Shown: one piece after another, positions 45,976 to 62,652 of the stretch
How the letters are laid out: every line of letters begins with the position of its first letter
Numbering within the stretch: the first letter of the stretch is position 1
Assembly: GCA_963663475.2 (NCBI GenBank)
Contig: CAXXJV010000001.1
Location: 2,464,001-2,528,000 of the forward strand
Origin: Candidatus Cloacimonadales bacterium
GTDB lineage: Bacteria > Cloacimonadota > Cloacimonadia > Cloacimonadales > JAFGVF01
Direction of reading: 5' to 3'
DNA length: 64,000 nt
The notes under the pieces: generated by a model
Told to the model about the DNA's origin: nothing
The model's input: the letters and a program-made list of their open reading frames with translations, nothing else
Database searches by the model: none
Translations under genes and position numbers: made by a program

Positions 45976-48900
45976 TTATTTCATTAAGATCATTTTCTTA
46001 GTTGAGCTAAATTTGCCATTTCTCATTTTGTAGAAATAAAGGCCAGAAGCTACAGCTTTATTATTATCATCTCTACCATTCCAAACAACACTATGGTTAC
46101 CAGCATTTCTATAGTCATTAAGGAGAGTTTTTACCTTCTGTCCTTTAACATTATAGATATCAATTGAGACATTACCAGCTTCTTTAGTAGTAAAGGCAAT
46201 TGAAGTTTCTGGATTAAATGGGTTTGGATAGTTTTGAGCTAATGAATTTATTTGTGGAATATCTTCTACATGTTCATTATCAACACCGTCAGGAGTAGAG
46301 TCTATTCTGAAGTTATCAACCATAAAGATAAAGGCATCATTACTTATACATTCAATAGCAAATCTTACAGTTGTACCAGTAAGTTCACTAACATTGAAGT
46401 TGTAAAGAGTCCATTCAGTTGGTGCTTCTAAATAATCAATACCTTGGTGAAGTGAGTATTGGAAATCACTAGCTTCACTACCACCAAGAGACATCTTAAC
46501 TCTGAATTTTTCTAACCCAAACTCATCAGTATAAGACTTTGCATAGAAGGAAACAACTGATGTTGTTCCTACTGTGAATCTAGGTGTGATTATCCAGTCA
46601 TCATTCTGTCCTTCTGTAGAAGCAAATGATGTTAAGAATTTATCTCCACTTTGAGGAATCATATCTTCAATAGGTGGAGTAGTTGCTGAAGGATTAAAGA
46701 CCATATAAGACATTGCTGAACCAGCATTATCATAATCAACATTACTAATAGTATAAGTATTTCCACCATCTATATCATGCTGAATCCAACCAGGTAAGTT
46801 AAGGGTAAAGTCTTCATGATCATCAAAATCATCTCCCCATAATGGTTCACCAATATTATAGTAGATAATAATAGCAGTATTTGATGGTAGGGAGAAACCT
46901 TCAGGATCTTCATACATACCAACAACATGATAGTGGTATTCTGTACCTACAACCACATTAGCATCATGGTAGAGATTAGTTCCAATTGGGATCATTTCTT
47001 CAGTAATAACTTCACCATCTCTATAAATATGATAACCTGTTAGGTATCTTTCATAAGGAGGTTCAACCCAGGTTAATGCAACATAACCAGATTGATTAGA
47101 AGCTTCTAAGTTTAGAGGTGAATTGAAATCATAGTTATAATTAGCATCAACATAGAGATTATACAATCCTGTATCTTCTCTAGTTAATCTTTCATTTTCT
47201 CCATTCTCATTCTTTCTTGTGTGTGGAGGTGTTGCACCTTGAGGGTAAACATTAGATTTGGCTACTCTAAGGTAGTAGTTACCACTTTGAGGTAGAACAA
47301 ATTCAATATTTGAGCCATTATCAAGATAAACAGCTGGGTCAATTTCACTAGCATCGTTAGCTGGACCATAAAGCCACATAGAAGGATTTACATCTGAGCC
47401 ACCAGCATCTTCTACTGAGCAAAGTAGAGTATCACTAATACCCATTGCAGGGATTAGATACCAATCAATATCACCAATAGGCATAATAGCATAAGTATCA
47501 CCATCAACAGGAAGAGTTAATGTAACAGCATCTTCCGGAACATCATTATTATCATCAGCATAAGCGTAACCAGAAATAACAACTTCATGAGTAACTCTAG
47601 TTGCATCATCAACTATTTGGATGGTAGCAGACTTCGTTCCTTCTGAGTTAGGAGTGAAAGCTACACCAATAGTAGCAATATTATTGAAAGGTAATACTAA
47701 AGGATAAGTATTATTATCTGTTGTTATTGTAAATTGATCTGCATCATCTCCACCTAAAGTTGGAGCATTAGCAATTGTTACATCTTGGAGACCAATAGAT
47801 CTCATAGTAATAGTCTTTTCAACTGAATTACCATCTACAGGAGTCATCTCAAATAGACTATTAGTAGGATAAACTGTTAAATCTGGAGCATCAGGAATAT
47901 CACCAAATTCAAGTTTTATATTAGCAAAGGCATCTCTAATATAATTTGCACTTGGTGGTGCGACAGGATCAGGATTTGTGGAATCGCTATAATAAATAAT
48001 ACCTCGAGTGGAGTTAGAAGGGGTACAATAGAAGTCATTATCACTTGAATGATAACCAGGGGTATCTTCTTCAACAGCAACTACAAGGTTTTGGGTATTA
48101 TCATAGACGAATGGAATATCTAATTCAAATTCAATCCAACCATCTTCTGCTGGGGCATTTAGAGTACCAGTATAAACTTGCATAAACTCACCAATATCAA
48201 TCCAGTCTTCATTATTAGCAAATTCATTCATATCTGTATGAGCCATGTATATTTTGAAATCATCTGGACCAAAAGCCCCAGTTCCATTATAATGCCAGGA
48301 AATTTTTTCAATACGAGAATCAGTAATTCCTATCTCATTAGCATAATAGATTACTTGCGAATAGGTATAGCCATAATATGGTTCAATTGGCATATTCAAA
48401 TTCGTAGCAGTACCTGTACCAATAACAGCGATATTATCAGGTAATGCCGGTAATATAAAAGCATCTGTATATATAGTTATTGATTCATTATTAGTATCAT
48501 TAGAAGTAACAGTAAATGAACCAGAATAATCTCCTTCAGCAATTGGGTTTAAACTAACATCTATGATTTCACTAGTTTCAGGTTCGATTGTAAGAGTTGT
48601 TGGATTGAAAGTAAGTTCAGTACCTGTAGAAGAAAGTTGGATTTCTAAATCACTTACACCCCAGTTTTCTACAGTGAGGTTACTTACGCCTGTCCTGTTC
48701 AAATAAACATCTCCGAAGTGAAGAGTGTCTTGGATAACTACTATAGCAGGACCAGTAGGAATATATTCAATAAAGAAATTATCTATATATTGGGTAACAT
48801 AAGTACCACCTGTTCCTAAATATTTAAGAACAATAAAACTAGCATTTTCATCAACACCAGCAAAATTTTGTACATACTGTTGCCAATCTGAACTAAAGGT

Positions 48901-50988
48901 AATAGTATCAATTGCAGTGAAATTTAACTCACCAACATTGTTATGAGCTACACCAACAACAATCTGTCCACCATCAGTAGATGATTTCCCCATAAAACGA
49001 ATACGTTTTGTAGTAAGGTCGTCTATAGGTGGAGTAATAGCATAGAGGTCAGGGTTTGTAGCATCAGCATTGTATAATCTTAACGTAGATGGACTTTCAT
49101 AACCACCGTAAGTATTTACTCCAACAGCAGAATATGTTGCAGCGTTTTCTATTACTGAAGCCCAATCTTGAGGAAGTTGTCCAATTTCGACATCTTCAAA
49201 ACCTTCAAAATGAGGGAAATCATAAATCATAGCATCATAGCCAGAACCAGTAAGTGGTATCACTGTATCACCGTTTTCTGCATCATTAATAGTAATGTTA
49301 GCAGTAAAATCTCCCACACTTTGTGGATTAAAAGCAACAGAAAAATGTCCAACATTATCTGTAATTTCTAAAGGGTAAGTATTATCATCTGTAAAGATGA
49401 AATCACTTGTTTGGTCAATAGTTACGCTATTAATTGTTAAAGTTCCTAAACCAGTATTTCTCATTGAGAAAGTTGTAGCATTTGTGACAGTATTTATTAT
49501 TGTATCATCCCAGTTATATTCTTCAGGGGTTATCATCAACTGAGGAGTAGTTGGTATATCACCCATTGTAAGAAGAATGTTTGCTATAAATGCTTGAGTA
49601 GTTCCAGTTGGAGGGGAAATAAAACCATAATTAGTTACATCATTATAGTGGTAAATACTTTTATTTCCATTCGTTGAAGTAGCATGAAACTCGTCGCTTG
49701 ATGAAGTATAACCTTGTGTATTAGCTTCAAAAGCAATAACTAAATTGTCATTATTGTTATAATTAAAAGGTATGGTTAAAGCTAGTGTAACCCATCCCTC
49801 TTCAGCTGGAACTGATAAAGGGCCATCATAACACAAGACAAAATCATTAATATCAAGCCAAGAATCACCATCCGCAAAGGCGTCTATTTGAGTATGACCT
49901 AAATATAATTGCACATTATCTTCTGTCCAAGCGCTATTACCATTATAATAGAAAGATACTTGTTCTATTCTTTGGTCTTCAATATTTAACCATTCTTGAT
50001 CATAGATCATTTGTGTAAGTGAATAACCATAAAAAGGTTCCATAGGCAGGTGTGTATTTGCCTCTGTTCCGTTACCAATAACAATTGATCCCTCTTCTGC
50101 ACTTGTAGCAAATGACCAGATTGGAGAAGGTGTAGTGAATTCAATCAAGTTATTTCCTGCTTCAATTCTCCAATAATAAGTTGTTAAGGGATTTAGATCA
50201 TCAGTAGTTATTGTTTGCTGGGTATATTCTTCTGAGATTAGGGCTGCTTCTGTCATATCACTAACATCAGTATATACATCACTTAAATAAACGTTAACCC
50301 AATCAGTATTAACTCCATTTGTCCAAGTTAGTTCAACAGGAGATGATTGATTGAAAGAACCATTAGCAGGACTTGCTAATGTTGGGAGTCCTGGTTCATT
50401 TTCTGAAAGGTAATGGAATCTAGTATTTGGGAATACAGGAGATAACTGACCGTCTGCAGCAGGAAATGTTCCATCAGAATAACTAAAACAAGCCATTTCA
50501 GGTGAAGCTGAAGTAGCTGTAAAAATTGGTTGTGAAGATGCATAAGATCCATCATTATTAATAACTAAAACTTCTAAGTTATCACTACCATTGTAAGTAA
50601 AAGTTTGATCAAAAATTATATCAAACCAGCCTGTTCCATTATAAGTTAAAGTACCACTGAAAACTTCAGTATATGTTTCATCAGTAGTAGGATCAATATA
50701 TGTTGGATTTACGAAGTTTTCCTCGGTAGTATTTTTTAAATAGAAAGTCTGGTTAAGCATCTCATAGTTGCTAGGTGTGTTGTTTACATGATAAGAAAGT
50801 TTGTTAATTTCCATCTCATTCTCTAAATCTGCGGCAGGATAAATAGTCCGTGACCAACCGTAATCATACCAGCCATATGCTGGGATATAACTAGAGGTCT
50901 CATTTCCATCACCAACCTGTACAAAGACTGCATTTAAGGACATTATCAAGGTTAATAATGTTAAAACAACAATCATTTTCTTTTGCAT
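45976..50988 (-). CDS. Large secreted adhesin-like protein, paralog C
   Basis: Same architecture and length as paralog A; last ~635 aa nearly identical to A and B. Confidence 0.85.
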   Translation of the reverse strand: MQKKMIVVLTLLTLIMSLNAVFVQVGDGNETSSYIPAYGWYDYGWSRTIYPAADLENEMEINKLSYHVNNTPSNYEMLNQTFYLKNTTEENFVNPTYIDPTTDETYTEVFSGTLTYNGTGWFDIIFDQTFTYNGSDNLEVLVINNDGSYASSQPIFTATSASPEMACFSYSDGTFPAADGQLSPVFPNTRFHYLSENEPGLPTLASPANGSFNQSSPVELTWTNGVNTDWVNVYLSDVYTDVSDMTEAALISEEYTQQTITTDDLNPLTTYYWRIEAGNNLIEFTTPSPIWSFATSAEEGSIVIGNGTEANTHLPMEPFYGYSLTQMIYDQEWLNIEDQRIEQVSFYYNGNSAWTEDNVQLYLGHTQIDAFADGDSWLDINDFVLCYDGPLSVPAEEGWVTLALTIPFNYNNNDNLVIAFEANTQGYTSSSDEFHATSTNGNKSIYHYNDVTNYGFISPPTGTTQAFIANILLTMGDIPTTPQLMITPEEYNWDDTIINTVTNATTFSMRNTGLGTLTINSVTIDQTSDFIFTDDNTYPLEITDNVGHFSVAFNPQSVGDFTANITINDAENGDTVIPLTGSGYDAMIYDFPHFEGFEDVEIGQLPQDWASVIENAATYSAVGVNTYGGYESPSTLRLYNADATNPDLYAITPPIDDLTTKRIRFMGKSSTDGGQIVVGVAHNNVGELNFTAIDTITFSSDWQQYVQNFAGVDENASFIVLKYLGTGGTYVTQYIDNFFIEYIPTGPAIVVIQDTLHFGDVYLNRTGVSNLTVENWGVSDLEIQLSSTGTELTFNPTTLTIEPETSEIIDVSLNPIAEGDYSGSFTVTSNDTNNESITIYTDAFILPALPDNIAVIGTGTATNLNMPIEPYYGYTYSQVIYYANEIGITDSRIEKISWHYNGTGAFGPDDFKIYMAHTDMNEFANNEDWIDIGEFMQVYTGTLNAPAEDGWIEFELDIPFVYDNTQNLVVAVEEDTPGYHSSDNDFYCTPSNSTRGIIYYSDSTNPDPVAPPSANYIRDAFANIKLEFGDIPDAPDLTVYPTNSLFEMTPVDGNSVEKTITMRSIGLQDVTIANAPTLGGDDADQFTITTDNNTYPLVLPFNNIATIGVAFTPNSEGTKSATIQIVDDATRVTHEVVISGYAYADDNNDVPEDAVTLTLPVDGDTYAIMPIGDIDWYLIPAMGISDTLLCSVEDAGGSDVNPSMWLYGPANDASEIDPAVYLDNGSNIEFVLPQSGNYYLRVAKSNVYPQGATPPHTRKNENGENERLTREDTGLYNLYVDANYNYDFNSPLNLEASNQSGYVALTWVEPPYERYLTGYHIYRDGEVITEEMIPIGTNLYHDANVVVGTEYHYHVVGMYEDPEGFSLPSNTAIIIYYNIGEPLWGDDFDDHEDFTLNLPGWIQHDIDGGNTYTISNVDYDNAGSAMSYMVFNPSATTPPIEDMIPQSGDKFLTSFASTEGQNDDWIITPRFTVGTTSVVSFYAKSYTDEFGLEKFRVKMSLGGSEASDFQYSLHQGIDYLEAPTEWTLYNFNVSELTGTTVRFAIECISNDAFIFMVDNFRIDSTPDGVDNEHVEDIPQINSLAQNYPNPFNPETSIAFTTKEAGNVSIDIYNVKGQKVKTLLNDYRNAGNHSVVWNGRDDNNKAVASGLYFYKMRNGKFSSTKKMILMK

Positions 50989-51368
50989 AGTCACTCCTTA
51001 ATCGTGTTTAATAAATTCCTTAATTTTGGATTGTGCTCAATATACTTGATAACAAGTATCTATTTGCTATGGTGGTAGCAAATTCTTTTAATACAAATCA
51101 AAGAAAGCATATTATTTTTTTCTTGGCAAGTATTATTTTTAATTTTTCTTAATATTTTAACTTTTTGCGATAATTAAATCTATCTTAACAGTGTTAATAT
51201 CTTTTCCACTATTAATTTTTTATATTGTTAACTTAATATTTCTTAGTAGTGAAATTCTTGATTATTAGTTTCAGTTTATTAATTCCTACTTTTACCAATT
51301 AAGCCACCAATAGATGTTTTTTGCTTGGATAAATTTTTATTAATTGTATCAAATTTTCAACAGTTCAT

Positions 51369-51429
51369 TTACTCCCCCCGCCTAACGGCAAGCCTCTCAT
51401 ACCCCTCTAATGAGCAGAAAGGGGAATTA
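51369..51429 (+). repeat. 61-bp dispersed repeat, copy 2
   Basis: Direct repeat of 25573-25633. Confidence 0.9.
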
Positions 51430-51607
51430 GATTCTCACACCAAGGCACGAAGAAGATAAGGAAGAATATTTTTAACAAAAATTATTTGGGATTTAACGAC
51501 TTACTTTTGCAAAAGAAAAAGGAGTTAATCACAAAGGAATACTGCATTAGGGATATAAAGTTGGGGTAAGAATATGTTAGTTGAAGTATAAAGAATAAGT
51601 TTTTGTG

Positions 51608-51684
51608 TGGTAGCGAGAGGAGGATTTGAACCTCCGGCCTTCGGGTTATGAGCCCGACGAGCTACCAAACTGCTCCATCTCGCG
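51608..51684 (-). tRNA. tRNA-fMet (CAT), initiator
   Basis: CGCGAGATGGAGCAGTTTGGTAGCTCGTCGGGCTCATAACCCGA...CGCTACCA; C1:A72 mismatch and three G-C pairs in the anticodon stem. Confidence 0.97.
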
Positions 51685-51695
51685 ACAATAAAAAA

Positions 51696-51772
51696 TGGGG
51701 TGGCTGATGGGGCTCGAACCCACGACGCCAGGAACCACAATCCTGTGCTCTACCAACTGAACTACAGCCACC
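51696..51772 (-). tRNA. tRNA-His (GTG)
   Basis: GGTGGCTGTAGTTCAG...CAGGATTGTGGTTCCTG...CAGCCACCCCA, with encoded G-1. Confidence 0.97.
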
Positions 51773-51812
51773 ATATTTAAGGTAAAATGTGTGTTTTATA
51801 ATTTTAAAAGAA

Positions 51813-51889
<77 letters not shown>

Positions 51890-51898
51890 ACATTAAAA

Positions 51899-51975
51899 TG
51901 GTAGCGGCACAGGGACTCGAACCCCGGACACTCGGATTATGATTCCGATGCTCTAACCAACTGAGCTATGCCGCC
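51899..51975 (-). tRNA. tRNA-Met (CAT), probably elongator (Ile2 not excluded)
   Basis: GGCGGCATAGCTCAG...TCGGA-ATCATAA-TCCGA...TGCCGCTACCA; lacks initiator hallmarks. Confidence 0.92.
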
Positions 51976-51982
51976 ATTTTTA

Positions 51983-52059
51983 TGGTAGCGAGAGGAGGAT
52001 TTGAACCTCCGGCCTTCGGGTTATGAGCCCGACGAGCTACCAAACTGCTCCATCTCGCG
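51983..52059 (-). tRNA. tRNA-fMet (CAT), second identical copy
   Basis: Same sequence as 51608-51684. Confidence 0.97.
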
Positions 52060-52071
52060 TCAAGTTTTATC

Positions 52072-52099
52072 AATTTATAAAATAGTGTTTTTCTGTCAA
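52072..52099 (-). promoter_or_regulatory. Sigma70-type promoter of the five-tRNA operon
   Basis: TTGACA (52094-52099), 16 nt, TAAATT (52072-52077), just upstream of tRNA-fMet. Confidence 0.6.
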
Positions 52100-52172
52100 G
52101 TAAAATTTTCATTTATTTGATTTTCACTTATCAATCAGGAAAGATTGATTAACACTAACACACTATATAGAA

Positions 52173-52249
52173 TGGCACGCCCAAGAGGAGTCGAACCCCT
52201 AACCTTCTGATCCGTAGTCAGACACTCTATCCAATTGAGCTATGGGCGC
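52173..52249 (-). tRNA. tRNA-Arg (ACG)
   Basis: GCGCCCATAGCTCAATTGGATAGAG...TCTGA-CTACGGA-TCAGA...TGGGCGTGCCA; own TTGACA at 52285-52290. Confidence 0.97.
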
Positions 52250-52706
52250 ACATCGTTTTTGCATAAAAAAACTAGGGGGTTTTATGTCAAGCATATTTTT
52301 TAACTTTTTTTAGTGATACTTAGCTATCATATTGATTAATTGAAGGTTAATAAGTCTTTTTATTTTTTATATTCTCCTTATAGGCTAGCATCTTATTCTT
52401 CTTTAATTGTTAGTCTCCCTGAAAAAATGGGATTTTTACAGGAAAAAGTATAAAAGTATAAAGTGACACCCAAGTTTTCCATCTGCAAAAACGATCCATA
52501 TATCTCATAAAATCCCACACATTAAACTCTTACACCTATTTTCAATCGTTTTTTCAAAATTTCCAATTTAACTGCTTTCACAGGAAACTTTATCGTTTGA
52601 TTTATACTTTTAAAGTAGTTTTGTGGTTGTAAAGAACACCATTAATAACCTTAAACATCTAATAAATAAAGAATTAGTCTATTTTGTAGTTTTAAGGCAA
52701 TTGAAA

Positions 52707-52839
52707 AAAATCGTTTTTACGCTTTTTTCTCACTGCAAAAACGATTCGGTTTCTCACATTTGATAAAAAAGCGTAAAAACGATTTTGAAGAAGTGACAGA
52801 GTTTTTTCATTATTGATAAAAAACCGTAAAAACGATTTT
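52707..52839. repeat. Iterated sites: two direct 27-mers plus one inverted 22-mer
   Basis: ttgataaaaaa(g/c)cgtaaaaacgatttt at 52760-52786 and 52813-52839; aaaatcgtttttacgctttttt at 52707-52728. Confidence 0.92.
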
Positions 52840-52864
52840 AACTTTATTAACAATATAGCGTTAA

Positions 52865-54733
52865 TTATTTTTGAAAAGTAACGTCCAAACTCGCTCCGTA
52901 TAAATTCTTTTCGATTATTCTGTATCGACATTTAGATTCTATAGTTTTGCTTAGAACAGTTTTCAGTTCTTTCTTAGCTGTAGAAACTCTTTTATTCTTG
53001 CTCTTGCAGCTTTTAGTTTCTAGCAATCTAATTTTTAACGAATCATTTTTTAGTTCTATGATTATTGAATCAATATCTGTTATGCAAGATTCACTTGGTT
53101 TCTTTCTGAAGTCATAAATATTTATTCTCGAGTTATATATCAGAGCAAATCCTTCAAAGTTTCTTAGTGTATTCTTTAAATGATTAACTTCATGTTTCCT
53201 GCCTTTGTCTGAGATACCTTCTTGGTGCCTGTCCAAGTCTTCCTTAATCAATTCAAAATTATCATGAGGTGTTTTGATATAAAATTTTTGGTGATCTATT
53301 TCTTGTACTTCACTCAATCTATAATCATCTTTAAATATGAATTTCAGTATTGCCCAAAATAGATTTTCATAAGATGGTATTAGATCTTTATCTAAAACTT
53401 TGAATAAAATATACTTATGGGCATTTGTATCTGTTTTAAAGATATTATTTAACTTTTCACTTGGTATGCCATTTTGTTTTGCTCTTTGTTTGAGCTCATT
53501 AAACATAACATTATGAATCATTTTTGGGTTAGATACTTGCAATTCACTTTCTTTTAATAACATATTACATATATTAAAATTGATAGTAACAAAACTTGAA
53601 GAAGTAAACTTTTCTGTAAAAAAAATATCTGCTGATCTAGCATTTGTAATCGGATTGTGATCTAAATACGTTTCTATGCCAACGCAGTGCTTTCTTAATA
53701 TTGATATTCTTCTAACTTCATCATAAAAATTAATTCTTGATCTGTGGACTGGTAATTTGAATCTAACATAAGGAATATAAGATTTTATTTCTTTAGTAAC
53801 TAATCCTGTTTGAATAGCATCTCTGATAATTTCTTTATATTGTGATGCTTGTTTCTTCTTAACATCAATAATTTTCAATGACTCAATTTCATAAGATTTT
53901 TGTAGTGCACAAACTTCTGGATCATGATAAATTGAATCATATAGTTCATTTACAAAAGGATTTAAACTACTATTAATATTCAATTTAACAACTCTATCGG
54001 AATTATTTAAAGAGTTAATGAATGAAAAAATATCAGCATTAAATGGTATATGCGAATAGTGTGCATCTATTGAGATAATTGATAATTTTCGTATAATTCC
54101 ATAAACATCCGTTAATTGTTGAAGTTTATGAATATTTAACTTGCAAGAGTTAGAACTTAGCAACATTTTAAACAAAAACCTAATACTTTGCTTCATTTCT
54201 GTACTCAAAGAAGAGTTTCTATCTAGTCTATGCAAAGAAATTAAAAAATGAAACTTTGAAACATCGAAATTATTAATTATGACATTGGCAATTTCTTCAA
54301 GCTCATTATCTAAATTACATAAGAAAATTGATTTAAATCCTTTTAACTTTTTTGCAAACTTTAACAATGATCGTTCATCTGCATATGTATTCTTAGTGTG
54401 CCCAAAATTTGACAGCATAAACCAACTTTTAAGAATACTGTTACCTGTATATTCTTGACCGTTAACTTTGATACTTCCTAGGGAAAAACTCGAGCCTTTA
54501 TGAATATTATCAAATAAATCAACCATAGCACACTGTAACATCAGATATTCATACCTGCTATGGGATGCTCCATCAAATGTTTTTTCAATCAACCCCAAAT
54601 GCTTAATTCTTTTCTGTCTATCAAACTCTTTTTCAGTTTCATACAATGAATAAACACTTCGAGCAATATCATAAAATTTTATAGAGACTAGTCCAAAACT
54701 AGGGATAGCTACCTTATGAATAATTGAGGACAA
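52865..54733 (-). CDS. Degenerate SAMHD1/dNTPase-like HD domain fused to a C-terminal PD-(D/E)XK nuclease; candidate anti-phage protein
   Basis: EFDRQKRIKHLGL..TFDGASHSRYEY and LSNFGHT..TYADE align by eye to F.RL..I.QLG...F.GA.H.RFEH and LHD.GH.PFSH..E; C-terminal HE...TDID...LLETK. TTG start with AAGGAG RBS. Confidence 0.7.
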   Translation of the reverse strand: MSSIIHKVAIPSFGLVSIKFYDIARSVYSLYETEKEFDRQKRIKHLGLIEKTFDGASHSRYEYLMLQCAMVDLFDNIHKGSSFSLGSIKVNGQEYTGNSILKSWFMLSNFGHTKNTYADERSLLKFAKKLKGFKSIFLCNLDNELEEIANVIINNFDVSKFHFLISLHRLDRNSSLSTEMKQSIRFLFKMLLSSNSCKLNIHKLQQLTDVYGIIRKLSIISIDAHYSHIPFNADIFSFINSLNNSDRVVKLNINSSLNPFVNELYDSIYHDPEVCALQKSYEIESLKIIDVKKKQASQYKEIIRDAIQTGLVTKEIKSYIPYVRFKLPVHRSRINFYDEVRRISILRKHCVGIETYLDHNPITNARSADIFFTEKFTSSSFVTINFNICNMLLKESELQVSNPKMIHNVMFNELKQRAKQNGIPSEKLNNIFKTDTNAHKYILFKVLDKDLIPSYENLFWAILKFIFKDDYRLSEVQEIDHQKFYIKTPHDNFELIKEDLDRHQEGISDKGRKHEVNHLKNTLRNFEGFALIYNSRINIYDFRKKPSESCITDIDSIIIELKNDSLKIRLLETKSCKSKNKRVSTAKKELKTVLSKTIESKCRYRIIEKNLYGASLDVTFQK

Positions 54734-54745
54734 ACATTTCTCCTT

Positions 54746-55472
54746 TTAAATAACCCTAAACAGAAAGACCATCTCACCTAAGATCCTGAAGGTCTCAAGT
54801 TCAAAGTCTTCTATTATTATTACATCAAAATCTGGATTAAGTGGTTTAAGTATAACCCTCTTCTTCTCTTTATCAAATTGTAGTTTTTTTAAAGTAGCAC
54901 CTTCAGGTGTATGACAAGCACATACTTTACCATTCAAACTTGGTATATCTATGTTCTCTCTTATAACAACAACATCTCCATGAGCAATTATTGGGAACAT
55001 ACTGTTTCCATTAACCTTGAGAGCTATATACTTGTTCTCTTGATCTGACAAATAAGCTTTTGGTATCTCTATATACTTTGATGGAGCATCATCATAACCA
55101 TTCATTGGAGTACCTGCAGCAATCTCTCCATATATAGGTAGAGTTATAACCCTTGAATCGAAAGGGTTGAGTTTATGTTTATATACTGAGTTATTTCCTG
55201 TCATCTCTTCTATATTCTTTTTATGACCATCTCCATAGAGATTTCCATCAGAATCTAAAACAAACATTCCACCTTTACCAGTTAATAACCAATTTAAGTT
55301 TAAACCATAGCGTTCGTTGATACGAGCCATGGCTGTTGCTGGAGGTTTACTTGTTTTTTCTGTTCAACCAATCTGATAGATTACCTGATGTGACCTCAAT
55401 AGTATTCGTAAACTCGGAACGCTTTATATCAAGAGCATTTACGAACATTAACAGCCTATCTTTTATATCCAT
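54746..55472 (-). pseudogene. CI/LexA-like phage repressor (HTH + S24 autopeptidase), split by a 1-nt frameshift
   Basis: ATG 55472 gives MDIKDRLLMFVNALDIKRSEFTNTIEVTSGNLSDWLNRKNK*; the next frame continues KTSKPPATAMARINERYGLNLNWLLTGKG...IAAG...GNSMFP...TLKK. The shift is at the T6 run 55354-55359. Confidence 0.88.
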
Positions 55473-55519
55473 TTAATCTCCTATCTTTTATATCCATTTA
55501 ATCTCCTATCTTATATATC
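55455..55519. repeat. 25-bp tandem duplication covering the repressor RBS and start codon
   Basis: cctatcttttatatccatttaatct twice (55455-55479, 55480-55504) plus a partial third copy. Confidence 0.95.
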
Positions 55520-55526
55520 ATTCCAT

Positions 55527-55638
55527 TTCGCATTGTTGCACACTGATGCGTTGGACTGAAACTTTTCCTTGACTACTTTCGCATATTTTGCTTTATAGAT
55601 TTAGTAATCATTATTTGCAACATTGCGAACAATGTCAA
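55527..55638. promoter_or_regulatory. Phage genetic switch: face-to-face promoters with three operators
   Basis: ttcgcattgttgca (55527-55540), ttcgcatattttgc (55578-55591), inverted tgcaacattgcgaa (55616-55629). Leftward TTGACA (55633-55638)-17 nt-AATAAT; rightward -35 TTGACT (55569-55574). Confidence 0.7.
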
Positions 55639-55658
55639 TAAAAATTTAGGAGGTTCGA

Positions 55659-55901
55659 ATGAGATCACCATATCATCCTGCTGTAATAAGATCAGCTATG
55701 ACGCTTAAAAGACTCACAACAAAGGCATTAGCCGAACGCTTATTCATCTCCAGAAGATCATTAGATTATTTTATTAATGAAGGAATACATATAAGAAAAG
55801 CAGAAGATGTCTTAGAAATTCTTCAACCTGAGCTTGATGAGATAAGTGAAATTTATCGCAAACACACTAACATAGAAGTCGAGAGTTGCGAAAAGAGGTA
55901 A
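55659..55901 (+). CDS. Ner/Cro-like HTH regulator
   Basis: AGGAGG RBS; YHPAVIRSAMTLKRLTTKALAERLFISRRSL resembles the Ner-type WH.A.I.A.L...G.S...L pattern; divergent from the repressor. Confidence 0.7.
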   Translation: MRSPYHPAVIRSAMTLKRLTTKALAERLFISRRSLDYFINEGIHIRKAEDVLEILQPELDEISEIYRKHTNIEVESCEKR

Positions 55902-55962
55902 TGATGGAATACAAAGAACTAACAGTTAACAACAAGAGTTTAACTAGGAAAATATCCAGTTA

Positions 55963-56223
55963 ATGAGTTATGTAGGATTAAAAAATTTAAATACAATCCT
56001 GATGGTCGCAGTTGATATAATATACTCTGCTATAAAATATTTAGATGAGCTATTATACTTATACCCAGAATTTGGAAATTTGAAAGAACAGACATATAAA
56101 TATGTATATTATAAGCTTAGCAGAGTCATAAAACATATATTCAGCAATACAAAACTTAACAAGATTTTACCCTGCAAAGGTGAATATCATGACAAGTTAC
56201 AGCTGAAGATCAATTTTTCTTAA
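55963..56223 (+). CDS. Hypothetical protein, possibly a phage gene remnant
   Basis: 86-aa ORF coupled by TAATG overlaps through a 20-aa ORF (55901-55963) to the Ner-like gene. Confidence 0.35.
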   Translation: MSYVGLKNLNTILMVAVDIIYSAIKYLDELLYLYPEFGNLKEQTYKYVYYKLSRVIKHIFSNTKLNKILPCKGEYHDKLQLKINFS

Positions 56224-56387
56224 AAAAAATGGGGGTATGCCAAAAATTACTAAAAATTACTTGACATTACTAGAACATACGGCTTAAATATCTTTAGCAT
56301 ATTTACTAGGATTTTGTTTACAGAAATTTAACAGAAGATGAGATTTTGCCAAGTGGTAAGTTTTTAACTTAAAAATAAGGAGTATCT

Positions 56388-58004
56388 ATGAGAAAATTTG
56401 TACTATTAATTCTATTGTTGCTGACCGCAATTCTACAACTATACGCAGACAACGAACTAGAACCTTGGATTACCCTTAGTGGAGAGTGGGCTCCATCCTG
56501 GTTTGGGAAACACATGGCAGTATTAGACTTTAATGCAGATGGTATAGATGACTTAATCGTTTATCATATTGGAGAATATGGTGTTTATCATGGAGCTTTA
56601 AATATCTACTTTGGTGGAAGTAATTTCGGTAATGAACCTGATATGGTAATAGAAGGAGATCATGTTGGTCATTTAAGAGAAGGTGTCTTCTACTGCGGAG
56701 ATGTTAATGGTGATGGCTATGATGATTTTATAAGTCATGCTTTTGTTCATAGTGATGGTGTTGGAGACCCGAATGATTACGCCTTTCGCTACTACTTTGG
56801 TGGACCCAATCCTGATATTGAAGTTGATCAAGAATTTTCATATAGTGATAATGATCAAGATTGGTATGGGATAAGAACCTGTTTAGGAGATGTTAATAAT
56901 GATGGTTATGATGATATTGGGCTTAAAAGATTTGAGGGTAATGGTTATCCTTTAAAGATATTACTTGGTAATACGCTTGAACTTGTGGAAATTATTCCTG
57001 CTGAAGAGTCAACTCTTTTTTTCCCTAATATTGAACCTATGGGAGATATCAACAATGATGGTATAGCTGATTTCTCAGTTGGTTATGGATATGAAGCACA
57101 TGGTACGGAACATCAACATACAAGAATATTCTATGGAGGAGAAGATTTTACAACTAGTTTTATTGACTACAAACACTATGTTAATTCCGAATACATGTTT
57201 AAAGGGGCAAAGACTATTGGTGATTTTAATGGGGATGGATTAAATGATTTTCTTTTTCCAGTACCAAATAATGCGTCAAACGACTATTATGCCTTAGCCA
57301 TACGAGCTGACGAGATACTAGAGTCAGATGAACTTCATGTAGAACAATTTTATTATGACCAACCTTTACTAGACGCTTCTAGACCTATGTCCTACACTAT
57401 AGGTTACGGAGACTTTAATGGTGATGGTTTTAGTGATTTTGTTGGTTCTAATATGGAATATGCTATAGATGATGGAGCTGCCGGAATCTGGTTTGGCAGG
57501 GCAACCCCAAACGGAGATTGTGATATTAGATTAAATAGTCCAACTGTAGTTCATCAATTTGGCTACAAAGTTAAAGTTGGAGATTTTAATGGTGATGGAT
57601 TGGATGATATTGCTATCTCTTCTCCTCACCGAGCAGGTTCTTTAGAAGATGGATTTAATGGAGAAGTTTATATTTATAAAGGATCAGTTGATTTAGCTGA
57701 TACGGCTGTAGCTAATAGTGACCAAGAAGTTGAAGAAAATCATGGTATAAGATTAAATATCTACCCGAATCCTTCTAAATCTAGTATGGATATTAAGTAC
57801 ACTATTAAAGGTTCCTTAAGTAGAGATATTTCGGGTACACAGCTAATTATCTACAACATTAAAGGTCAAAAAATTTATTCAACAAGTATTAATAGTAAAG
57901 ATAACACAATTAGCATACCTCAAGTCCCATCAGGATGTTACATTGCTGAAATTAAAGAAAACAATAAAGTCTTGGCTTCTAGTAAGTTTAATTTAATAAA
58001 ATAA
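56388..58004 (+). CDS. Secreted FG-GAP/integrin-alpha beta-propeller protein with T9SS-type CTD
   Basis: Signal peptide, seven D(F/V/I)N.DG..D repeats, CTD IYPNP...IYNIKGQ...KFNLIK; AAGGAG RBS; TTGACA at 56261. Confidence 0.88.
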   Translation: MRKFVLLILLLLTAILQLYADNELEPWITLSGEWAPSWFGKHMAVLDFNADGIDDLIVYHIGEYGVYHGALNIYFGGSNFGNEPDMVIEGDHVGHLREGVFYCGDVNGDGYDDFISHAFVHSDGVGDPNDYAFRYYFGGPNPDIEVDQEFSYSDNDQDWYGIRTCLGDVNNDGYDDIGLKRFEGNGYPLKILLGNTLELVEIIPAEESTLFFPNIEPMGDINNDGIADFSVGYGYEAHGTEHQHTRIFYGGEDFTTSFIDYKHYVNSEYMFKGAKTIGDFNGDGLNDFLFPVPNNASNDYYALAIRADEILESDELHVEQFYYDQPLLDASRPMSYTIGYGDFNGDGFSDFVGSNMEYAIDDGAAGIWFGRATPNGDCDIRLNSPTVVHQFGYKVKVGDFNGDGLDDIAISSPHRAGSLEDGFNGEVYIYKGSVDLADTAVANSDQEVEENHGIRLNIYPNPSKSSMDIKYTIKGSLSRDISGTQLIIYNIKGQKIYSTSINSKDNTISIPQVPSGCYIAEIKENNKVLASSKFNLIK

Positions 58005-58014
58005 GGAGTAAAAA

Positions 58015-61000
58015 ATGAAAAGGTTATTTGTAACAGTATCACTTGCAATATTTGTTTTAAGTTGTTGGTCATCAATTAGAGATGATTTCCTTATTGGTAA
58101 TTATGGCTACATTCATCCAGCTTATGGAGAAACTTCATATACTAGATTGTTCACTTTAATGCAAGAAGCCAACTATAATTCATCAATTTGTTCGCCGGTA
58201 AAACTTACCCAGTATCCATGGGGAGATTTGAGTACAATGTTAAGTAAAATGGAGCAATGCGATTTAACTCCAATTCTTTATGATAATTATACTAATTATT
58301 CCAATGGTGTGATAAATGAAATAAGCCCAAGAAATCTTTCCATGGGTATATATGCAAAATTCGAAGCTGAGTTTGATAGTAGAGAAGATAACAATATTCC
58401 TGAAAGTGATAGGCATATAGAAGAGAATAATGACATTTACCATTATCATTTTGATATTGATAGAATTGGGGCTATAAATCAAGCATTCGGAAGAAGATTC
58501 CTGTTTTGTTCACCTACTACAATGACAGAAGATGTTATTGTTGATAATTTAAGGCATAGGTGGAAAAATCACAAAAATGGTGTTGATGGAGATTTTATTG
58601 ATAATGCTGATTATTTACCTTACAAGGAAGCATTTGAATTCTCTAATGGTAGTGATGAATTAAATTATATCCAGTACAATAAGTTATATATGACAGTTTG
58701 TTATAAGGTTAGTTCAGACACCTCTTCTGCTTTAAAATTTGGTCTAAAGTTACTTAACATTGATGCCAACGATAATGAAGAGTGGTATTTTAAAGAGATT
58801 AGAAATACCATGAATAATGATTATGGAAACGTGTTGACCTATACAGCACAGGAACTTAATGACCCTGCAATAACATATGTAGACACATTGGAATTTTCAG
58901 ATTTTAGGAAGATAACTTTCGAGTTAGAATTGTCTAGTTTGTTGGATGGAGAAATTAATAGTCGAGACAATGATGATAGTAGATCATATCTATATAACTT
59001 TCATAGCAGAAAAAGATTAAATGGCATAACCCCATACATATACTGGGAAGGTAATCATGATGTTAGAATCGATTATATTGAGTTTGAAGATGACGTACAT
59101 AAACAAATTGTGGATGGCGTGGCACTTGATGCTTTAGAAAATAGATTAAATAAATACTCCTCAGTACATAATCACTATACTGTAGATGAGCCCAAGTTTA
59201 CTCACTTTGATTCTCATAAATTGATAGATGAAAGACTTAATAATTATAACATAATCACAACTAATTGGCCAATAAATTTTAAAGAGAAAAAACCAAATAA
59301 TACTAGATATTTTCATCCAGGGCAATTTGTAGAACAAGCCCAACCTGATGATTTAATGATAGATTTTTATCCACTAAAACCTGACGCTAATTGGAATAAT
59401 ATTGATGATGATAATTTTGTTCAATTCCTAATAGATTGGTGGGCTTGTGCAAACTATAGAAGAGCAAAACATAAAGCTGAAGATAGACCATTTTATGTTG
59501 TGCCTTGTACTGCTGGTAAATGGGATAATCGTTTTAATATATGGGTAGGATATCAATATCCGACGATCAACATGATTAAATGTCTGCAATATTTACCTCT
59601 CTGTTATGGGGTTGATGGAATAATAGATTTTCCATTTTATAAAGATACTACATTTAATGATAATGACCCTGAAGATAATGGTCATCGCTGGTATGCCCTA
59701 GTTAATGATGATGATAATGATTCCATTCATCCTAATGGACGGCATATTACACCACAATACTATGCAATAAAAGAAGCCAATGAAAAAGTATATAGATATG
59801 GAAATATTCTTAAAGATTTAACATGGCTAGATGCTACTACTATTAAAGCAAATGGTATTCAAGCTCTAGATTCTGAAATCTATATTATTGGTCAAAATCA
59901 GGAAGAAGGTGAAGATAAACCCCTTAATAATAGTATCTATAAATACTTCCCAACTGGAGGAATAAAAACTTCTAGTATTGGGAATAATAATGATAGAGAC
60001 ACCTATAATGGCTACATTCACATCGGATTGTTTGAAGACGAATATGGTCATCAGAAGTATATGCTTGTGAATAGGCGTACTGATTTTGTTGAAGATAGTA
60101 GTGGCTTAATGAATACTTTAAACCCTGATATATTAACTTCAAGATATGAAGATCAAGTATCATTTTTCCAAGCTTCTCCTCAATGTGTAAATTTTGATTT
60201 AGATTATGCAACTGAGGATTTTAATAATTCATTCGGTTCTCATGTTGCCCTATATGATCCTTATTCAAAAGAAATTTATCGACCTAACTCAGAAAATGTA
60301 ATAAGTGTTGAACTTAAACCTGGAGAGGGTAAAATGTTAGAATTTGTAAATTATCTATCTGGGGATATAACGATTTCACCTTTGCCATATTTAGATGGAC
60401 ATTATGTGATAGGTGACACGTTAAATATTGATGATAATGTTAGTCTATCATTTTCTCCTGAGTCAAGAGTATGTATAAAAGATAGTACAATAATTAATAT
60501 CTGCAAAAATGCAAAGCTATCATTAAGTGGAAGTGTAGAAATAAATAGTACCATAAATGCTGATTCTTTAGCAACACTTGAATTACTTAATACTTATAAA
60601 TGTTTATTAGGAGATGGAGTTAAGTTAAATGCCAATAACGGAACAATTATAATTGAAAACTCTTCACTAGAAGCTATAACAGATAAATGGGGCGGTCTAT
60701 ATTCTGATAATTTAGCAAATTTAAATAGTTGTATTATAATTAAAAATAGTGAGTTAAAACAATTTAGTAATCTTAGTATGCACAATGGATTTCTGACTAT
60801 TCTTGATGATAGTAATCTGTATTTTACTCAAAGGTATACTGTTCTTAAAAATGTTACAACTAACATCCATAATTCAATATTAAACTTTGAACACAATGGA
60901 TTTCGTTATTTTAACTCAAATTTGGAAGGAAACATATATATAACTAACACACAATTTAATGGTTCTTCAAATCTGAAAGCCATTGAACTTTCAGGTTCTG

Positions 61001-62652
61001 TTTTAGGTCTTGTAGTTTTAGATGGTGTAACCTTTAACAACTTTAATAAAGGAATAAATATTGTGAGTTTTAATAATTCACCCTCATATTTTGAAAATAT
61101 AGTGATTGCTGATTGTGAATTTAACAATTGCGATAGTGGAATATTGCTCACCGATTCACCTTCTTTTGGACAAATCAATATAAACACAACTGCATTTAAC
61201 AATATTGATGATGAAGGAATTGGAGTATATATATTCAATACTAATACAAGCGTCAATATAGATAGCTGTTCATTTTCTGGTAATGGTACAGGAATATCTA
61301 CTACTGGTATATCTCCATTTATTTCTAATTCCATATTTTCTAATTTAACAGTAGGTGTTAAAGAAGAATTAACAATTTCAAATACTGTAGCTAAGATAAA
61401 AGATTGTACTTTTAGGTATTGTGATACTGGATTTGAAGGTAGAGAATCCACAACAAGATTGGAAGAGAATACTTTTCAAGAAAATATAACAGGTATCAAA
61501 TCTCTAACAAATTCAGTTTTAGATATTTCTTATAATGCTTATAATATTTTTGATAATTCGATTAGAAATTTATATTTTCCAACAGATGAACCCAATGACT
61601 ATTTAATAAAGTGTTTAAAAGGGCATAACGATTTCTACCATAGATTTTCTCCACCAAATACACTAGCAAATGATTTTGATTTTACTGTACCTATTATGAA
61701 TAGGATTGGTATAGATGCAAGTTATAATTGGTTCTCAACTTCTACAGTGAGAGTTGCACCAGCATCAATGTCTAATTATGTTTCGGTTAATGAATTCGAT
61801 CCTGTCTCAAATTCTTTTTACCCACCTTCTATAACACCCGATAGATTTTATGAAGCCCTATGTGAAGAAAATAGTGGTTATAACTTAGAAGCATATCTAA
61901 TATATAAATTAATTTTAGATGAAGCTATACCAACTGAGAGTAGTCTCTGGGCTAGTTGTGTTGATGGTATTTATAGAAACTCTTATATTATTGGTATTGA
62001 TATTTTAGAAGTTGATAGCTATATGGAAGATAAAGTAGAACAATTTTCATCTATTGATAACTCCTTATCAGAAATGATTGACAACTATATAATGAGAGTT
62101 CATTTACTTTACAAGAATTACAATGAGGTTATAACTATTCTCGAGAATAGAATTAATTGTCCAACTTCTGAAATTGACTCTCTTAGTGCTGTACTTGATT
62201 TAGAGATAGTACTAAAATTGGCTAACGCTTCGCAAGGTAAATCTGAGGTTAATACAACTTTTGCTCAATATAAATATAAGACATTTGAGAAGTTCGAAGA
62301 AGAACATGCAAAGCATTGGGACATATATAATGATATGACAAAAGATGATGAATCAGATTATAATGTTCTTCCTCCTAACAAGCTTAATCTATCTAACTAC
62401 CCAAATCCTTTTAATCCTGAAACGACTATCATGTTTGGTTTACCTGAAGATAGTGACATAGAGATAAAGATATACAATCTAAAAGGACAAGTTGTTAAAA
62501 AACTTGTAAAAGATCACTTTAAAGCAGGCTATCATGCTGTTGTTTGGAATGGTAAGAATGATAGTAATCAAAAAGTTGCTTCTGGTGTTTATCTAACAAG
62601 AATAACTTCTAAAGAGAAAACTAAAACTAAAAAGATAATGCTTATGAAATAG
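58015..62652 (+). CDS. Large secreted protein: putative glycoside-hydrolase-like N-terminal region, right-handed beta-helix, T9SS/FlgD-type CTD
   Basis: Signal peptide; YTVDEP, DFYP and LCYGVDGII.F motifs; repeated C.F.N...GI beta-helix turns; CTD YPNPFNP...KKIMLMK. Confidence 0.75.
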   Translation: MKRLFVTVSLAIFVLSCWSSIRDDFLIGNYGYIHPAYGETSYTRLFTLMQEANYNSSICSPVKLTQYPWGDLSTMLSKMEQCDLTPILYDNYTNYSNGVINEISPRNLSMGIYAKFEAEFDSREDNNIPESDRHIEENNDIYHYHFDIDRIGAINQAFGRRFLFCSPTTMTEDVIVDNLRHRWKNHKNGVDGDFIDNADYLPYKEAFEFSNGSDELNYIQYNKLYMTVCYKVSSDTSSALKFGLKLLNIDANDNEEWYFKEIRNTMNNDYGNVLTYTAQELNDPAITYVDTLEFSDFRKITFELELSSLLDGEINSRDNDDSRSYLYNFHSRKRLNGITPYIYWEGNHDVRIDYIEFEDDVHKQIVDGVALDALENRLNKYSSVHNHYTVDEPKFTHFDSHKLIDERLNNYNIITTNWPINFKEKKPNNTRYFHPGQFVEQAQPDDLMIDFYPLKPDANWNNIDDDNFVQFLIDWWACANYRRAKHKAEDRPFYVVPCTAGKWDNRFNIWVGYQYPTINMIKCLQYLPLCYGVDGIIDFPFYKDTTFNDNDPEDNGHRWYALVNDDDNDSIHPNGRHITPQYYAIKEANEKVYRYGNILKDLTWLDATTIKANGIQALDSEIYIIGQNQEEGEDKPLNNSIYKYFPTGGIKTSSIGNNNDRDTYNGYIHIGLFEDEYGHQKYMLVNRRTDFVEDSSGLMNTLNPDILTSRYEDQVSFFQASPQCVNFDLDYATEDFNNSFGSHVALYDPYSKEIYRPNSENVISVELKPGEGKMLEFVNYLSGDITISPLPYLDGHYVIGDTLNIDDNVSLSFSPESRVCIKDSTIINICKNAKLSLSGSVEINSTINADSLATLELLNTYKCLLGDGVKLNANNGTIIIENSSLEAITDKWGGLYSDNLANLNSCIIIKNSELKQFSNLSMHNGFLTILDDSNLYFTQRYTVLKNVTTNIHNSILNFEHNGFRYFNSNLEGNIYITNTQFNGSSNLKAIELSGSVLGLVVLDGVTFNNFNKGINIVSFNNSPSYFENIVIADCEFNNCDSGILLTDSPSFGQININTTAFNNIDDEGIGVYIFNTNTSVNIDSCSFSGNGTGISTTGISPFISNSIFSNLTVGVKEELTISNTVAKIKDCTFRYCDTGFEGRESTTRLEENTFQENITGIKSLTNSVLDISYNAYNIFDNSIRNLYFPTDEPNDYLIKCLKGHNDFYHRFSPPNTLANDFDFTVPIMNRIGIDASYNWFSTSTVRVAPASMSNYVSVNEFDPVSNSFYPPSITPDRFYEALCEENSGYNLEAYLIYKLILDEAIPTESSLWASCVDGIYRNSYIIGIDILEVDSYMEDKVEQFSSIDNSLSEMIDNYIMRVHLLYKNYNEVITILENRINCPTSEIDSLSAVLDLEIVLKLANASQGKSEVNTTFAQYKYKTFEKFEEEHAKHWDIYNDMTKDDESDYNVLPPNKLNLSNYPNPFNPETTIMFGLPEDSDIEIKIYNLKGQVVKKLVKDHFKAGYHAVVWNGKNDSNQKVASGVYLTRITSKEKTKTKKIMLMK

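Follow-up and report, generated by a model that had tools for sequence, protein, structure and literature searches.

What does an intact gene do beside the broken repressor of a prophage that is otherwise lost? The question is raised by a 64,000-nucleotide stretch of the genome of a Candidatus Cloacimonadales bacterium (contig CAXXJV010000001.1; this whole stretch is called the window below), in which an open reading frame (ORF) for a protein of 622 amino acids (aa) lies next to a CI-like repressor gene. The original prediction, made from the letters of the DNA, described this protein as a catalytically dead SAMHD1/dGTPase-like HD domain fused to a PD-(D/E)XK nuclease and proposed it as a candidate nucleotide-sensing anti-phage system. 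Using fold searches, family alignments and comparisons with related genomes, we arrive at an evenly balanced estimate that the 622-aa protein is a defence nuclease that acts as a single protein under the control of a pseudo-dNTPase domain (dNTP, deoxynucleoside triphosphate).

The 622-aa protein and its family

The ORF at 52865..54733, the 12-bp gap that separates it from the end of the S24/CI-like ORF at 54746, and the motifs on which the prediction was built (EFDRQKRIKHLG, FDGASHSRYEY, LSNFGH, RKLSIISID, GRKHE, TDID, LLETK and AKKEL) were all present in the ORF list and the translation. Only four more codons are open upstream of the start codon (Table 1). The gene occurs in one copy in the 3.30-Mb genome, its stretch has a G+C content of 27% against 31-35% in the flanks, and six tRNA genes lie just past it (51608-52249). 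The AlphaFold model of the protein had a predicted local distance difference test score (pLDDT) of 86.4 and a predicted template modelling score of 0.83.

Searches with the single protein sequence in Pfam, NCBIfam, PHROGs, PADLOC and the Protein Data Bank (PDB) sequences gave no meaningful match. Neither the HD nor the HD_assoc_2 family of Pfam matched it, and no family of PADLOC-DB 2.0.0 was found at E≤1, which agrees with the earlier remark that the architecture was not recognised as a named system. Homologues were nevertheless numerous, with 28 full-length proteins at 31-37% identity and, in a profile search, 636 clusters (50% identity) at E≤1e-3, of which 456 were found at E≤1e-10 and 162 at E≤1e-30. 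These full-length homologues and profile clusters show that the ORF is conserved and not a chance reading frame. The members are mostly 590-660 aa long. Twenty distant members had no Pfam match, including none with DUF4263 at E≤0.01, and five distant members matched no PADLOC family at E≤1e-5.

The N-terminal module belongs to the SAMHD1/EF1143-type dNTPases

A Foldseek search against the PDB gave 192 matches at E≤1e-3. SAMHD1 entries stood at the top, the best of them with an E value of 5.7e-7 and a probability of 1.00. VIA, a fold search independent of Foldseek, returned SAMHD1 of R. irregularis (9mr6; Z 20.9, 347 residues aligned between model residues 4 and 460, root mean square deviation 4.2), Aquifex O67745 (2hek; Z 20.2, 309 residues), BT4208 (2q14; Z 19.3, 300 residues), human SAMHD1 (7ujn; Z 19.3, 360 residues) and EF1143 (2o6i; Z 19.0, 306 residues). 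Dgt-type dGTPases and CloA of the Clover system ranked lower, with Z scores of 12-14.5 (CloA, 13.3). The SAMHD1, EF1143, BT4208 and O67745 enzymes thus share the fold of the 622-aa N-terminus over ~300-360 residues. The whole length of a SAMHD1/EF1143-type enzyme corresponds to the length of this N-terminal module, and the 622-aa family differs from these dNTPases in having an extra nuclease-like domain of ~130 aa.

The same relationship was found at the level of sequence profiles. Profile A3, built from 103 full-length family representatives, matched the PDB sequences of 9mr6 (1.1e-5), 2o6i (7.3e-5), 2hek (3.6e-4) and 2q14 (5.4e-3) in HMMER. When it was aligned by hhalign with five ordinary HD_assoc_2 proteins, taken from genomes that also carry a 622-aa homologue, the probability was 96.5% with an E value of 7.7e-10 over residues 10-123. 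Residues 1 to ~465 are therefore a true homologue of the SAMHD1/EF1143-type HD dNTPases, and the HD-dNTPase scaffold that had been read by eye in the N-terminus is borne out by Foldseek, VIA, profile A3 and hhalign alike.

The motif equivalences proposed by eye were reproduced in part. HMMER paired the family motif RwEY with RFEH of 9mr6, and the same stretch with 2o6i, 2hek and 2q14, and hhalign paired the family motif LLsNxGH with LLHDxGH, so that the assignments of RYEY and LSNFGH stood. The third assignment, of RKLSIISID to D(R/K)xDYxxRD, was recovered only when hhalign extended its alignment into a stretch of low confidence.

The metal centre is lost throughout the family

Residues were counted in the alignment columns of 128 full-length family representatives. 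Y63 was aligned with the His of RFxH, S108 and N109 with the His-Asp pair of LLHDxGH, and H112 with the next conserved His of that motif. Position 63 was Tyr in 126 of the 128 representatives and a gap in the remaining two. Position 108 was Ser in 68, Leu in 32, Gly in 10 and His in one, and position 109 was Asn in 111 and Asp in none. A His-Asp pair at positions 108-109 did not occur in any of the 128 representatives, nor did an HD.GH motif in any of the 173 stored family proteins, fragments counted in. The replacement of metal ligands, first noted for the single protein, is therefore a property of all the family members counted, in which the metal-binding His, the His-Asp pair and probably the Asp of the SAMHD1/EF1143 dNTPases are replaced.

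In a greedy hhalign extension of low confidence, R215 (126/128) fell on the first Asp of D(R/K)xDYxxRD, which we take to be the fourth metal ligand in SAMHD1, and D223 (128/128) on the last. From this alignment, the fourth ligand is probably replaced by Arg215, and all four metal ligands would then be lost. An Arg at this place would put a positive side chain where the metal was.

Several other positions of these motifs were near-invariant, namely H58 (124 of the 128), R60 (122), W104 (123), G111 (126), H112 (122), T116 (123), E120 (125) and Y269 (126). Their conservation in spite of the lost ligands indicates that the pocket is under selection. Judged from the alignment, the metal ligands were lost long ago and across the whole family, which does not fit recent decay; a search for homologues with an intact HD pair, which the original prediction had named as a check, found none among the best 150 of the 636 clusters. 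Decay of a resident HD gene was also considered as an origin of the 622-aa gene and rejected, because the ligand loss is family-wide and the HD proteins of the genome itself, among them a normal dGTPase-like gene with HDLGH, are of unrelated types. The HD_assoc_2 family was absent from all 41 sampled genomes of the phylum; the same search was positive in nine of 14 control genomes, and an HD_assoc_2 enzyme was also present in all five other tested genomes with a 622-aa homologue.

A putative nuclease domain at the C-terminus

The C-terminal domain contains four conserved acidic or basic residues, E515 (127/128), D555 (128/128), E572 (126/128) and K574 (128/128), and the quartet was complete in 125 of the 128 representatives. 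Its secondary structure was taken from two predicted models, one of the full protein and one of the domain alone (pLDDT 84.1). A predicted helix at residues 510-522 carries E515, and D555 lies between the predicted strands 550-554 and 556-561, with D553 and D555 at a predicted beta hairpin. The strand 565-573 bears E572, with K574 directly after it, and is followed by a helix at 579-592 and strands at 603-609 and 613-621. In the predicted models, a helix that carries the Glu, an Asp where the chain turns into a strand, ExK on the next strand, and then a helix and strands make up a core order that fits PD-(D/E)XK nucleases. On the motif, its conservation and the modelled topology, the C-terminal ~130 aa are likely to form a PD-(D/E)XK nuclease.

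Searches by fold and profile gave no significant match to support this assignment. Foldseek found nothing at E≤1e-3 for the C-terminal domain in either the PDB or BFVD, and its wider match list contained no nuclease. The best match of a wide VIA search, the Can1 nuclease, had a Z score of 5.3, which is in the noise range. PD-(D/E)XK proteins made up 10 of the 50 rows listed, at Z 3.8-5.3 (Can1 5.3; Card1 4.9; VC1899 4.5; Can2 4.4, 4.3 and 4.3; PaqCI 4.4; AF1548 4.4; HamA 4.0; LCMV L 3.8), mixed with kinase lobes and anti-sigma factors; a further structure comparison gave eRF1 and anti-sigma rows at Z≤5.2. An hhalign comparison with NERD/YraN proteins from five genomes paired D555 and ExK, at a probability of 5%. 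Pfam searches of nine C-terminal domains at E≤10 gave nothing consistent, with one HSDR_N match at 0.09. In ESM language-model features, the domain came closest to NERD clusters (0.89), which we treat as a lead only. The nuclease signature that the original prediction called complete thus holds for the quartet and for the order of helices and strands, whereas the fold match is weak, with Z≤5.3.

A relative of this part of the protein was found on a plasmid of Priestia megaterium (NZ_CP048887.1). This stand-alone hypothetical protein of ~152 aa (L041:4055-4513) is 30% identical to residues 455-575 of the 622-aa protein (E 8e-8) and adjoins a DUF6602 protein. The nuclease-like domain therefore also exists without the N-terminal module.

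The gene lies in the remnant of a Mu-like prophage

The S24 part of the neighbouring repressor was recognised by Pfam (Peptidase_S24, 4.8e-21) and by PHROGs (PHROG 4, repressor, 5e-28). An intact repressor paralogue of 257 aa in the same genome is 88% identical to the copy in the window. Compared with it, 2 bp are missing from an A-run near 55353 in the window, and this deletion splits the helix-turn-helix (HTH) part from the S24 part. The window copy also carries a 24-bp tandem duplication (55450-55500) over the ribosome-binding site and start, which is not found in the intact paralogue. Contigs of runs X1, X3 and X4, from the same organism, match the window across the 2-bp deletion, and the relative in run X5 has two extra letters behind 55353.

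The intact copy (locus L030) encodes a Phage_CI_repr + S24 repressor together with an rve + Mu-transpos_C protein, an AAA_22/TniB-like (MuB-like) ATPase and DUF3164. Its position beside a Mu-type transposase, a MuB-like ATPase and DUF3164 identifies the repressor as that of a Mu-like transposable prophage, and the earlier assignment to a prophage immunity region can be narrowed to this type. Positions 54756-55928 of the window and 5275-4124 of L030 are 82.8% identical over 1180 bp. The homology spans the repressor gene, the operator region, the ner-like gene (L030:4220-4393) and the first ~14 transposase codons, and then stops; in L030 the transposase ORF runs on as a protein of 675 aa with rve and Mu-transpos_C. 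The window keeps only the left ~3.5 kb of the prophage, where the 622-aa gene is the sole long intact ORF. The claim that the surrounding phage genes have decayed is correct for the repressor with its 2-bp deletion; the rest are absent, not decayed.

Table 1. Features of the 622-aa gene and of the prophage remnant in the window
Feature	Position	Strand	Remark
Conserved non-coding end element	52453..52781	minus	at the junction with host DNA
622-aa ORF with stop codon	52865..54733	minus	TTG start; AAGGAG ribosome-binding site 6 nt upstream
Putative PD-(D/E)XK nuclease domain, residues 490-622	52868..53266	minus	conserved quartet, predicted secondary structure
SAMHD1/EF1143-like HD-dNTPase module, residues 1-466	53336..54733	minus	VIA, Foldseek, profile A3, hhalign
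S24-peptidase part of the CI-like repressor gene	54746..55330	minus	reads from an internal ATG after the frameshift
Promoter-like site TTGATA-16-TATACT	54849..54876	minus	consensus scan, 10/12 matches; in the repressor 3' end
HTH part of the same repressor gene	55347..55472	minus	41 codons, then TAA; different frame
Ner/Cro-like small HTH gene, 80 aa	55659..55901	plus	divergent from the repressor; weak PHROG regulator matches
Mu-type transposase stub, first ~14 codons	55886..55928	plus	prophage ends here

A repeat of ~335 bp (55931-56266), which includes an ORF of 86 aa (55963..56223, plus strand) and is multicopy in the genus, lies behind the transposase stub. At least 10 copies at 72-73% identity were found in genome G046 and a single copy at 97% in G045. 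The repeat takes over at exactly the point where homology to the prophage is lost, and may thus have caused the truncation. It could be an IS remnant, a MITE or the leader of a gene family.

Three further CI-like repressor homologues with 33-37% identity, one of them with an internal stop, occur in the same genome at C1:2537077-2537787 (~9 kb past the end of the window), C1:170284-170994 and C1:2680013-2680732. The genome seems to hold several copies or remnants of transposable prophages. The remnant is surrounded by very large ORFs (1545-1935 aa, two of them of 1672 aa) in 28293-50994 and 56388-62652. The ends of the ORFs at 45976-50994, 56388-58004 and 58015-62652 resemble, by eye, those of ORFs in the same genome that are matched by Por_Secre_tail/FlgD_ig. 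These very large ORFs are host genes and unrelated to the 622-aa gene.

The repressor-to-end slot carries variable cargo

When four genomes of the same genus were searched at the DNA level, the two flanks of the 622-aa gene were found again around other genes. On one side, the flank consists of the 3' part of the repressor gene, stop codon included; on the other, it is a non-coding element whose start lies 84 bp past the 622-aa ORF. The relative in run X5 likewise has both flanks, with another sequence in place of the 622-aa gene. The non-coding element has two near-invariant blocks (~52455-52485 and ~52542-52587); a long, perfect inverted repeat lies at ~52706-52787. After a different cargo in G066 it is 80% identical over 334 bp (L028:10182-10508), and its two blocks recur in G045, in the second copy of the window's own genome, G000 (L030:7296-7409), and at the loci L082 and L083. 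Rfam reported nothing at gathering score in 50900-56500 except the six tRNAs, and thus no family for this element. The element may be the left end of the prophage, a reading weakened by the short block, which also lies at four places in the window's own genome and beside non-phage genes in relatives. Candidate identities for it are a Mu-like end, a terminator unit and a small RNA.

We scored eight slots besides that of the window, each next to a copy or remnant of the repressor gene that has 64-100% identity to the intact one. The slots L081-L094 were scanned with PADLOC, and slot L030 also with Pfam. A gene recognised by PADLOC was present in five of the eight. The second copy in G000 (L030) carries a GmrSD-like endonuclease (GmrSD_N 1e-34, GmrSD_C 5e-21; PADLOC Orf5 1.5e-75), G045 (L029) a Ser/Thr kinase (Stk2 3e-50, with matches to PD-T4-6 models too) and G066 (L028) a 642-aa protein that matches PDC-S56 at 2.5e-192. 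A PDC-S31 protein (3.4e-41) occupies the slot L082 in G085, where the cassette is in tandem duplicate, and an Old/GajA-like protein (1.5e-56) is encoded by the second ORF from the repressor gene in G020 (L084). The proteins in L081 and L083 (both G085) and in L085 (G032) had no PADLOC match.

The slot is clearly enriched in defence-type genes, and the case for a defence role of the 622-aa gene rests mainly on this prevalence among its occupants. As with the accessory (moron) defence genes of temperate phages, a variable gene lies by the immunity repressor between conserved flanks; a difference is that only the left ~3.5 kb of the prophage remain in the window. At the level of titles, our literature search found no description of a cargo slot between repressor and end in Mu-like phages.

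A promoter-like site was found ~115 nt upstream of the 622-aa ORF (Table 1), and a 134-bp repressor remnant beside another cargo in G066 starts at the position that corresponds to window 54877. From its place in the sequence, this site is a possible cargo promoter.

In the duplicated locus L082 (G085:C1:2414000-2421900), the repressor 3' end, the PDC-S31 gene and the end element are all repeated in tandem. This suggests that the flanks can recombine and move the cargo as a cassette. A protein in an equivalent slot of G085 that is also 622 aa long was considered as a homologue and rejected as unrelated (hhalign 0.3%).

Distribution of the family

With the family profile, the gene was found in one of 101 sampled genomes of the phylum, which is the genome of the window itself, and it was absent from the four other genomes of the same genus in this sample. 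Homologues occur in Bacillota, Bacteroidota and Proteobacteria, so that, with the phylum of the window, at least four phyla are represented. A full-length homologue is encoded on a Peribacillus megaplasmid, and the plasmid search gave two matches in all. No gene was conserved beside the family member at nine distant loci, which rules out a conserved partner gene there, and integrases lay within 6 kb at three of the nine (L004, L006 and L007). Presence in a single genome of the phylum and yet in several phyla, without a conserved neighbour, indicates a mobile gene. The picture is that of a self-sufficient single gene moving horizontally.

Weighing of the explanations

Several results weigh against a defence nuclease controlled by a pseudo-dNTPase domain. 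Known defence genes were scarce around the nine distant homologues, with one PDC-S26 gene 7.5 kb away (L006) and one weak NUDIX match (L005), and at two of the nine loci the gene is a lone insertion between housekeeping genes (groEL; trigger factor/clpP). A tblastn search of INPHARED (50,697 phage records) found no homologue, and a search of IMG/VR with two peptide patterns, a method that detects only fairly close relatives, confirmed none. In the slot itself, three of the eight close cases hold proteins that lack a PADLOC match, and the PDC families are candidate, unproven systems. Ten slots beside distant repressor homologues (43-53% identity) gave two clear hits, PDC-S29 in one and PDC-S11/PD-T4-3 in another, with two ambiguous and six negative cases; a type I methyltransferase lies further along the PDC-S11/PD-T4-3 locus. 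The equivalences of R215 and D223 depend on the low-confidence stretch of the alignment, and ligand binding, oligomerisation and nuclease activity are predictions from sequence and models. The defence role claimed in the original prediction accordingly has indirect support from the variable slot, where five of eight cases hold a recognised gene, and little from the homologue neighbourhoods that had been named as a check, the nine distant loci having little known defence content.

A rather unlikely alternative is a defence or restriction-type nuclease whose dead module acts as an oligomerisation scaffold or in the recognition of nucleic acids or other targets, as in type IV or Shedu-like systems. 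Structures of SAMHD1 with DNA or RNA oligonucleotides were among the Foldseek matches (8d9j, 6u6y and 6u6z), and the same slot holds a GmrSD-like enzyme in L030, which is a restriction endonuclease by its Pfam name. According to the main text of one report (10.1101/2023.08.10.552793), Shedu is a single PD-(D/E)XK defence nuclease with nucleic-acid-binding N-termini. The near-invariant residues R60, H112, T116, E120, R215, D223 and Y269, as far as the alignment places them, lie in the substrate-pocket motifs of the active relatives. Because the near-invariant residues cluster in these motifs, a ligand site fits better than a mere scaffold, which is an argument from alignment.

It appears less probable still that the gene has nothing to do with defence and encodes a nuclease that serves the prophage, for example in degradation of host DNA, superinfection exclusion or counter-defence, or a repair or recombination factor of the host. 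The replacement genes in the same slot are mostly of defence type, and the phage collections (INPHARED and IMG/VR) yielded no homologue. The gene remained intact while the repressor broke and the prophage was lost, which indicates that it does not need the phage. Occurrence in one of 101 genomes of the phylum and yet in at least four phyla is also a poor fit to a housekeeping repair factor. A role outside defence would agree with the homologues that lie among housekeeping genes (groEL in L002; tig/clpP/clpX in L005; a tRNA synthetase in L010), with the lack of any matching PADLOC model and with the unknown proteins in three of the eight close slots.

That the HD-like module has stayed an enzyme through a centre rebuilt from H58, H112, D223 and other residues, which would make the protein a bifunctional phosphohydrolase-nuclease, is very unlikely despite the near-invariance of these three residues, since every member has lost the ligand at three, and probably at all four, of the positions, an Arg at the fourth position would repel a metal ion, and H58 and H112 also align with His residues of the canonical HD_assoc_2 dNTPases (AxHxRF and HDxGH), which presumably are not metal ligands in the SAMHD1 structures.

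Proposed mechanism and comparison with known systems

For a defence nuclease controlled by a pseudo-dNTPase domain, we propose the following course of events. A Mu-like transposable prophage would have carried the 622-aa gene as accessory cargo, and the gene would have outlasted the loss of the prophage in an intact state. Its role was most likely to defend the lysogen against other phages or incoming DNA. Expression would probably come from the repressor transcript or from the promoter-like site in the repressor 3' end. The dead dNTPase module would no longer hydrolyse nucleotides, and its pocket may still bind a nucleotide-like ligand, such as a dNTP or NTP, a phage-modified dNTP or a signalling nucleotide, with Arg215 substituting for the lost metal at the ligand phosphates. 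Binding of the ligand, or an oligomeric change driven by it as in SAMHD1, would switch on the fused nuclease. The activated nuclease would cut phage or cellular DNA, and the outcome could be either the death of the cell (abortive infection) or a cell that is spared. More tentatively, and with the balance somewhat against it, we suggest that a SAMHD1-fold pseudoenzyme may act as an immune receptor that reads the dNTP pool, or a non-canonical phage dNTP, without consuming it, with an arginine in place of the lost metal, and licenses the fused nuclease.

Bacterial dGTPases act as defence effectors. CloA of the Clover system is an HD-dNTPase fold in anti-phage immunity, and its activity is reported to be set by nucleotides at allosteric sites (10.1101/2025.07.09.663793). 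By analogy, CloA is a precedent for nucleotide control of the HD-dNTPase fold in bacteria. CloA and the defence dGTPases are active enzymes that deplete dNTPs, whereas the 622-aa protein has lost the centre and its output would be a nuclease. CloA is also structurally more distant from the 622-aa module (Z 13.3) than the SAMHD1/EF1143 type. In addition, Clover is reported to need the partner enzyme CloB, whereas the 622-aa family had no conserved partner at the nine loci.

In its layout, the 622-aa protein is similar to Shedu SduA (DUF4263), which by the main text of its report also has an N-terminal regulator and a C-terminal nuclease of the PD-(D/E)XK type in one polypeptide. It differs in having no match to DUF4263 (Pfam, E≤1) and no match to the SduA models of PADLOC. 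The main text of the Shedu report (10.1101/2023.08.10.552793), its supplementary N-terminal tables excluded, does not mention an HD domain, SAMHD1, a dNTPase or a phosphohydrolase.

The type III CRISPR proteins Can1, Can2 and Card1 share the proposed logic, in that a ligand sensor is combined with a PD-(D/E)XK nuclease activated by nucleotides. They are the best C-terminal matches and yet weak ones, in the noise range (Z 5.3 for Can1, 4.3-4.4 for Can2 and 4.9 for Card1). Their sensor is a CARF domain rather than an HD domain, and they need a CRISPR cyclase, of which there is none near the 622-aa gene.

A literature search that lay outside subscription journals and bioRxiv supplements found no paper on a dead HD-dNTPase fused to a nuclease. 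A sensor-nuclease fusion as an accessory gene of a prophage is a known logic; a pseudo-dNTPase is not known as its sensor. There is a fair chance that the family represents a new class of nucleotide-sensing receptor.

Significance

Surveillance of the nucleotide pool is an emerging theme of immunity, exemplified by SAMHD1, bacterial dGTPases and Clover. In the cases known to us, an enzyme alters the pool. If the proposed mechanism is correct, a dead dNTPase wired to a nuclease would mean that the pool is sensed and not depleted, and the family would be a widespread and unnamed one-gene defence family of at least 456 sequence clusters at E≤1e-10. A single gene for ~620 aa, which also has homologues in cultivable relatives of Bacillus, would make this a tractable system in which to ask which nucleotide change betrays a phage. 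Naming a family that is absent from Pfam, NCBIfam, PHROGs and PADLOC would also annotate hundreds of hypothetical proteins, and the slot between the repressor and the end element of these Mu-like prophages looks usable for finding new defence genes. An ancient fold that in animals acts against viruses through dNTP depletion would, if this reading is true, have been turned into a nucleotide sensor in bacteria.

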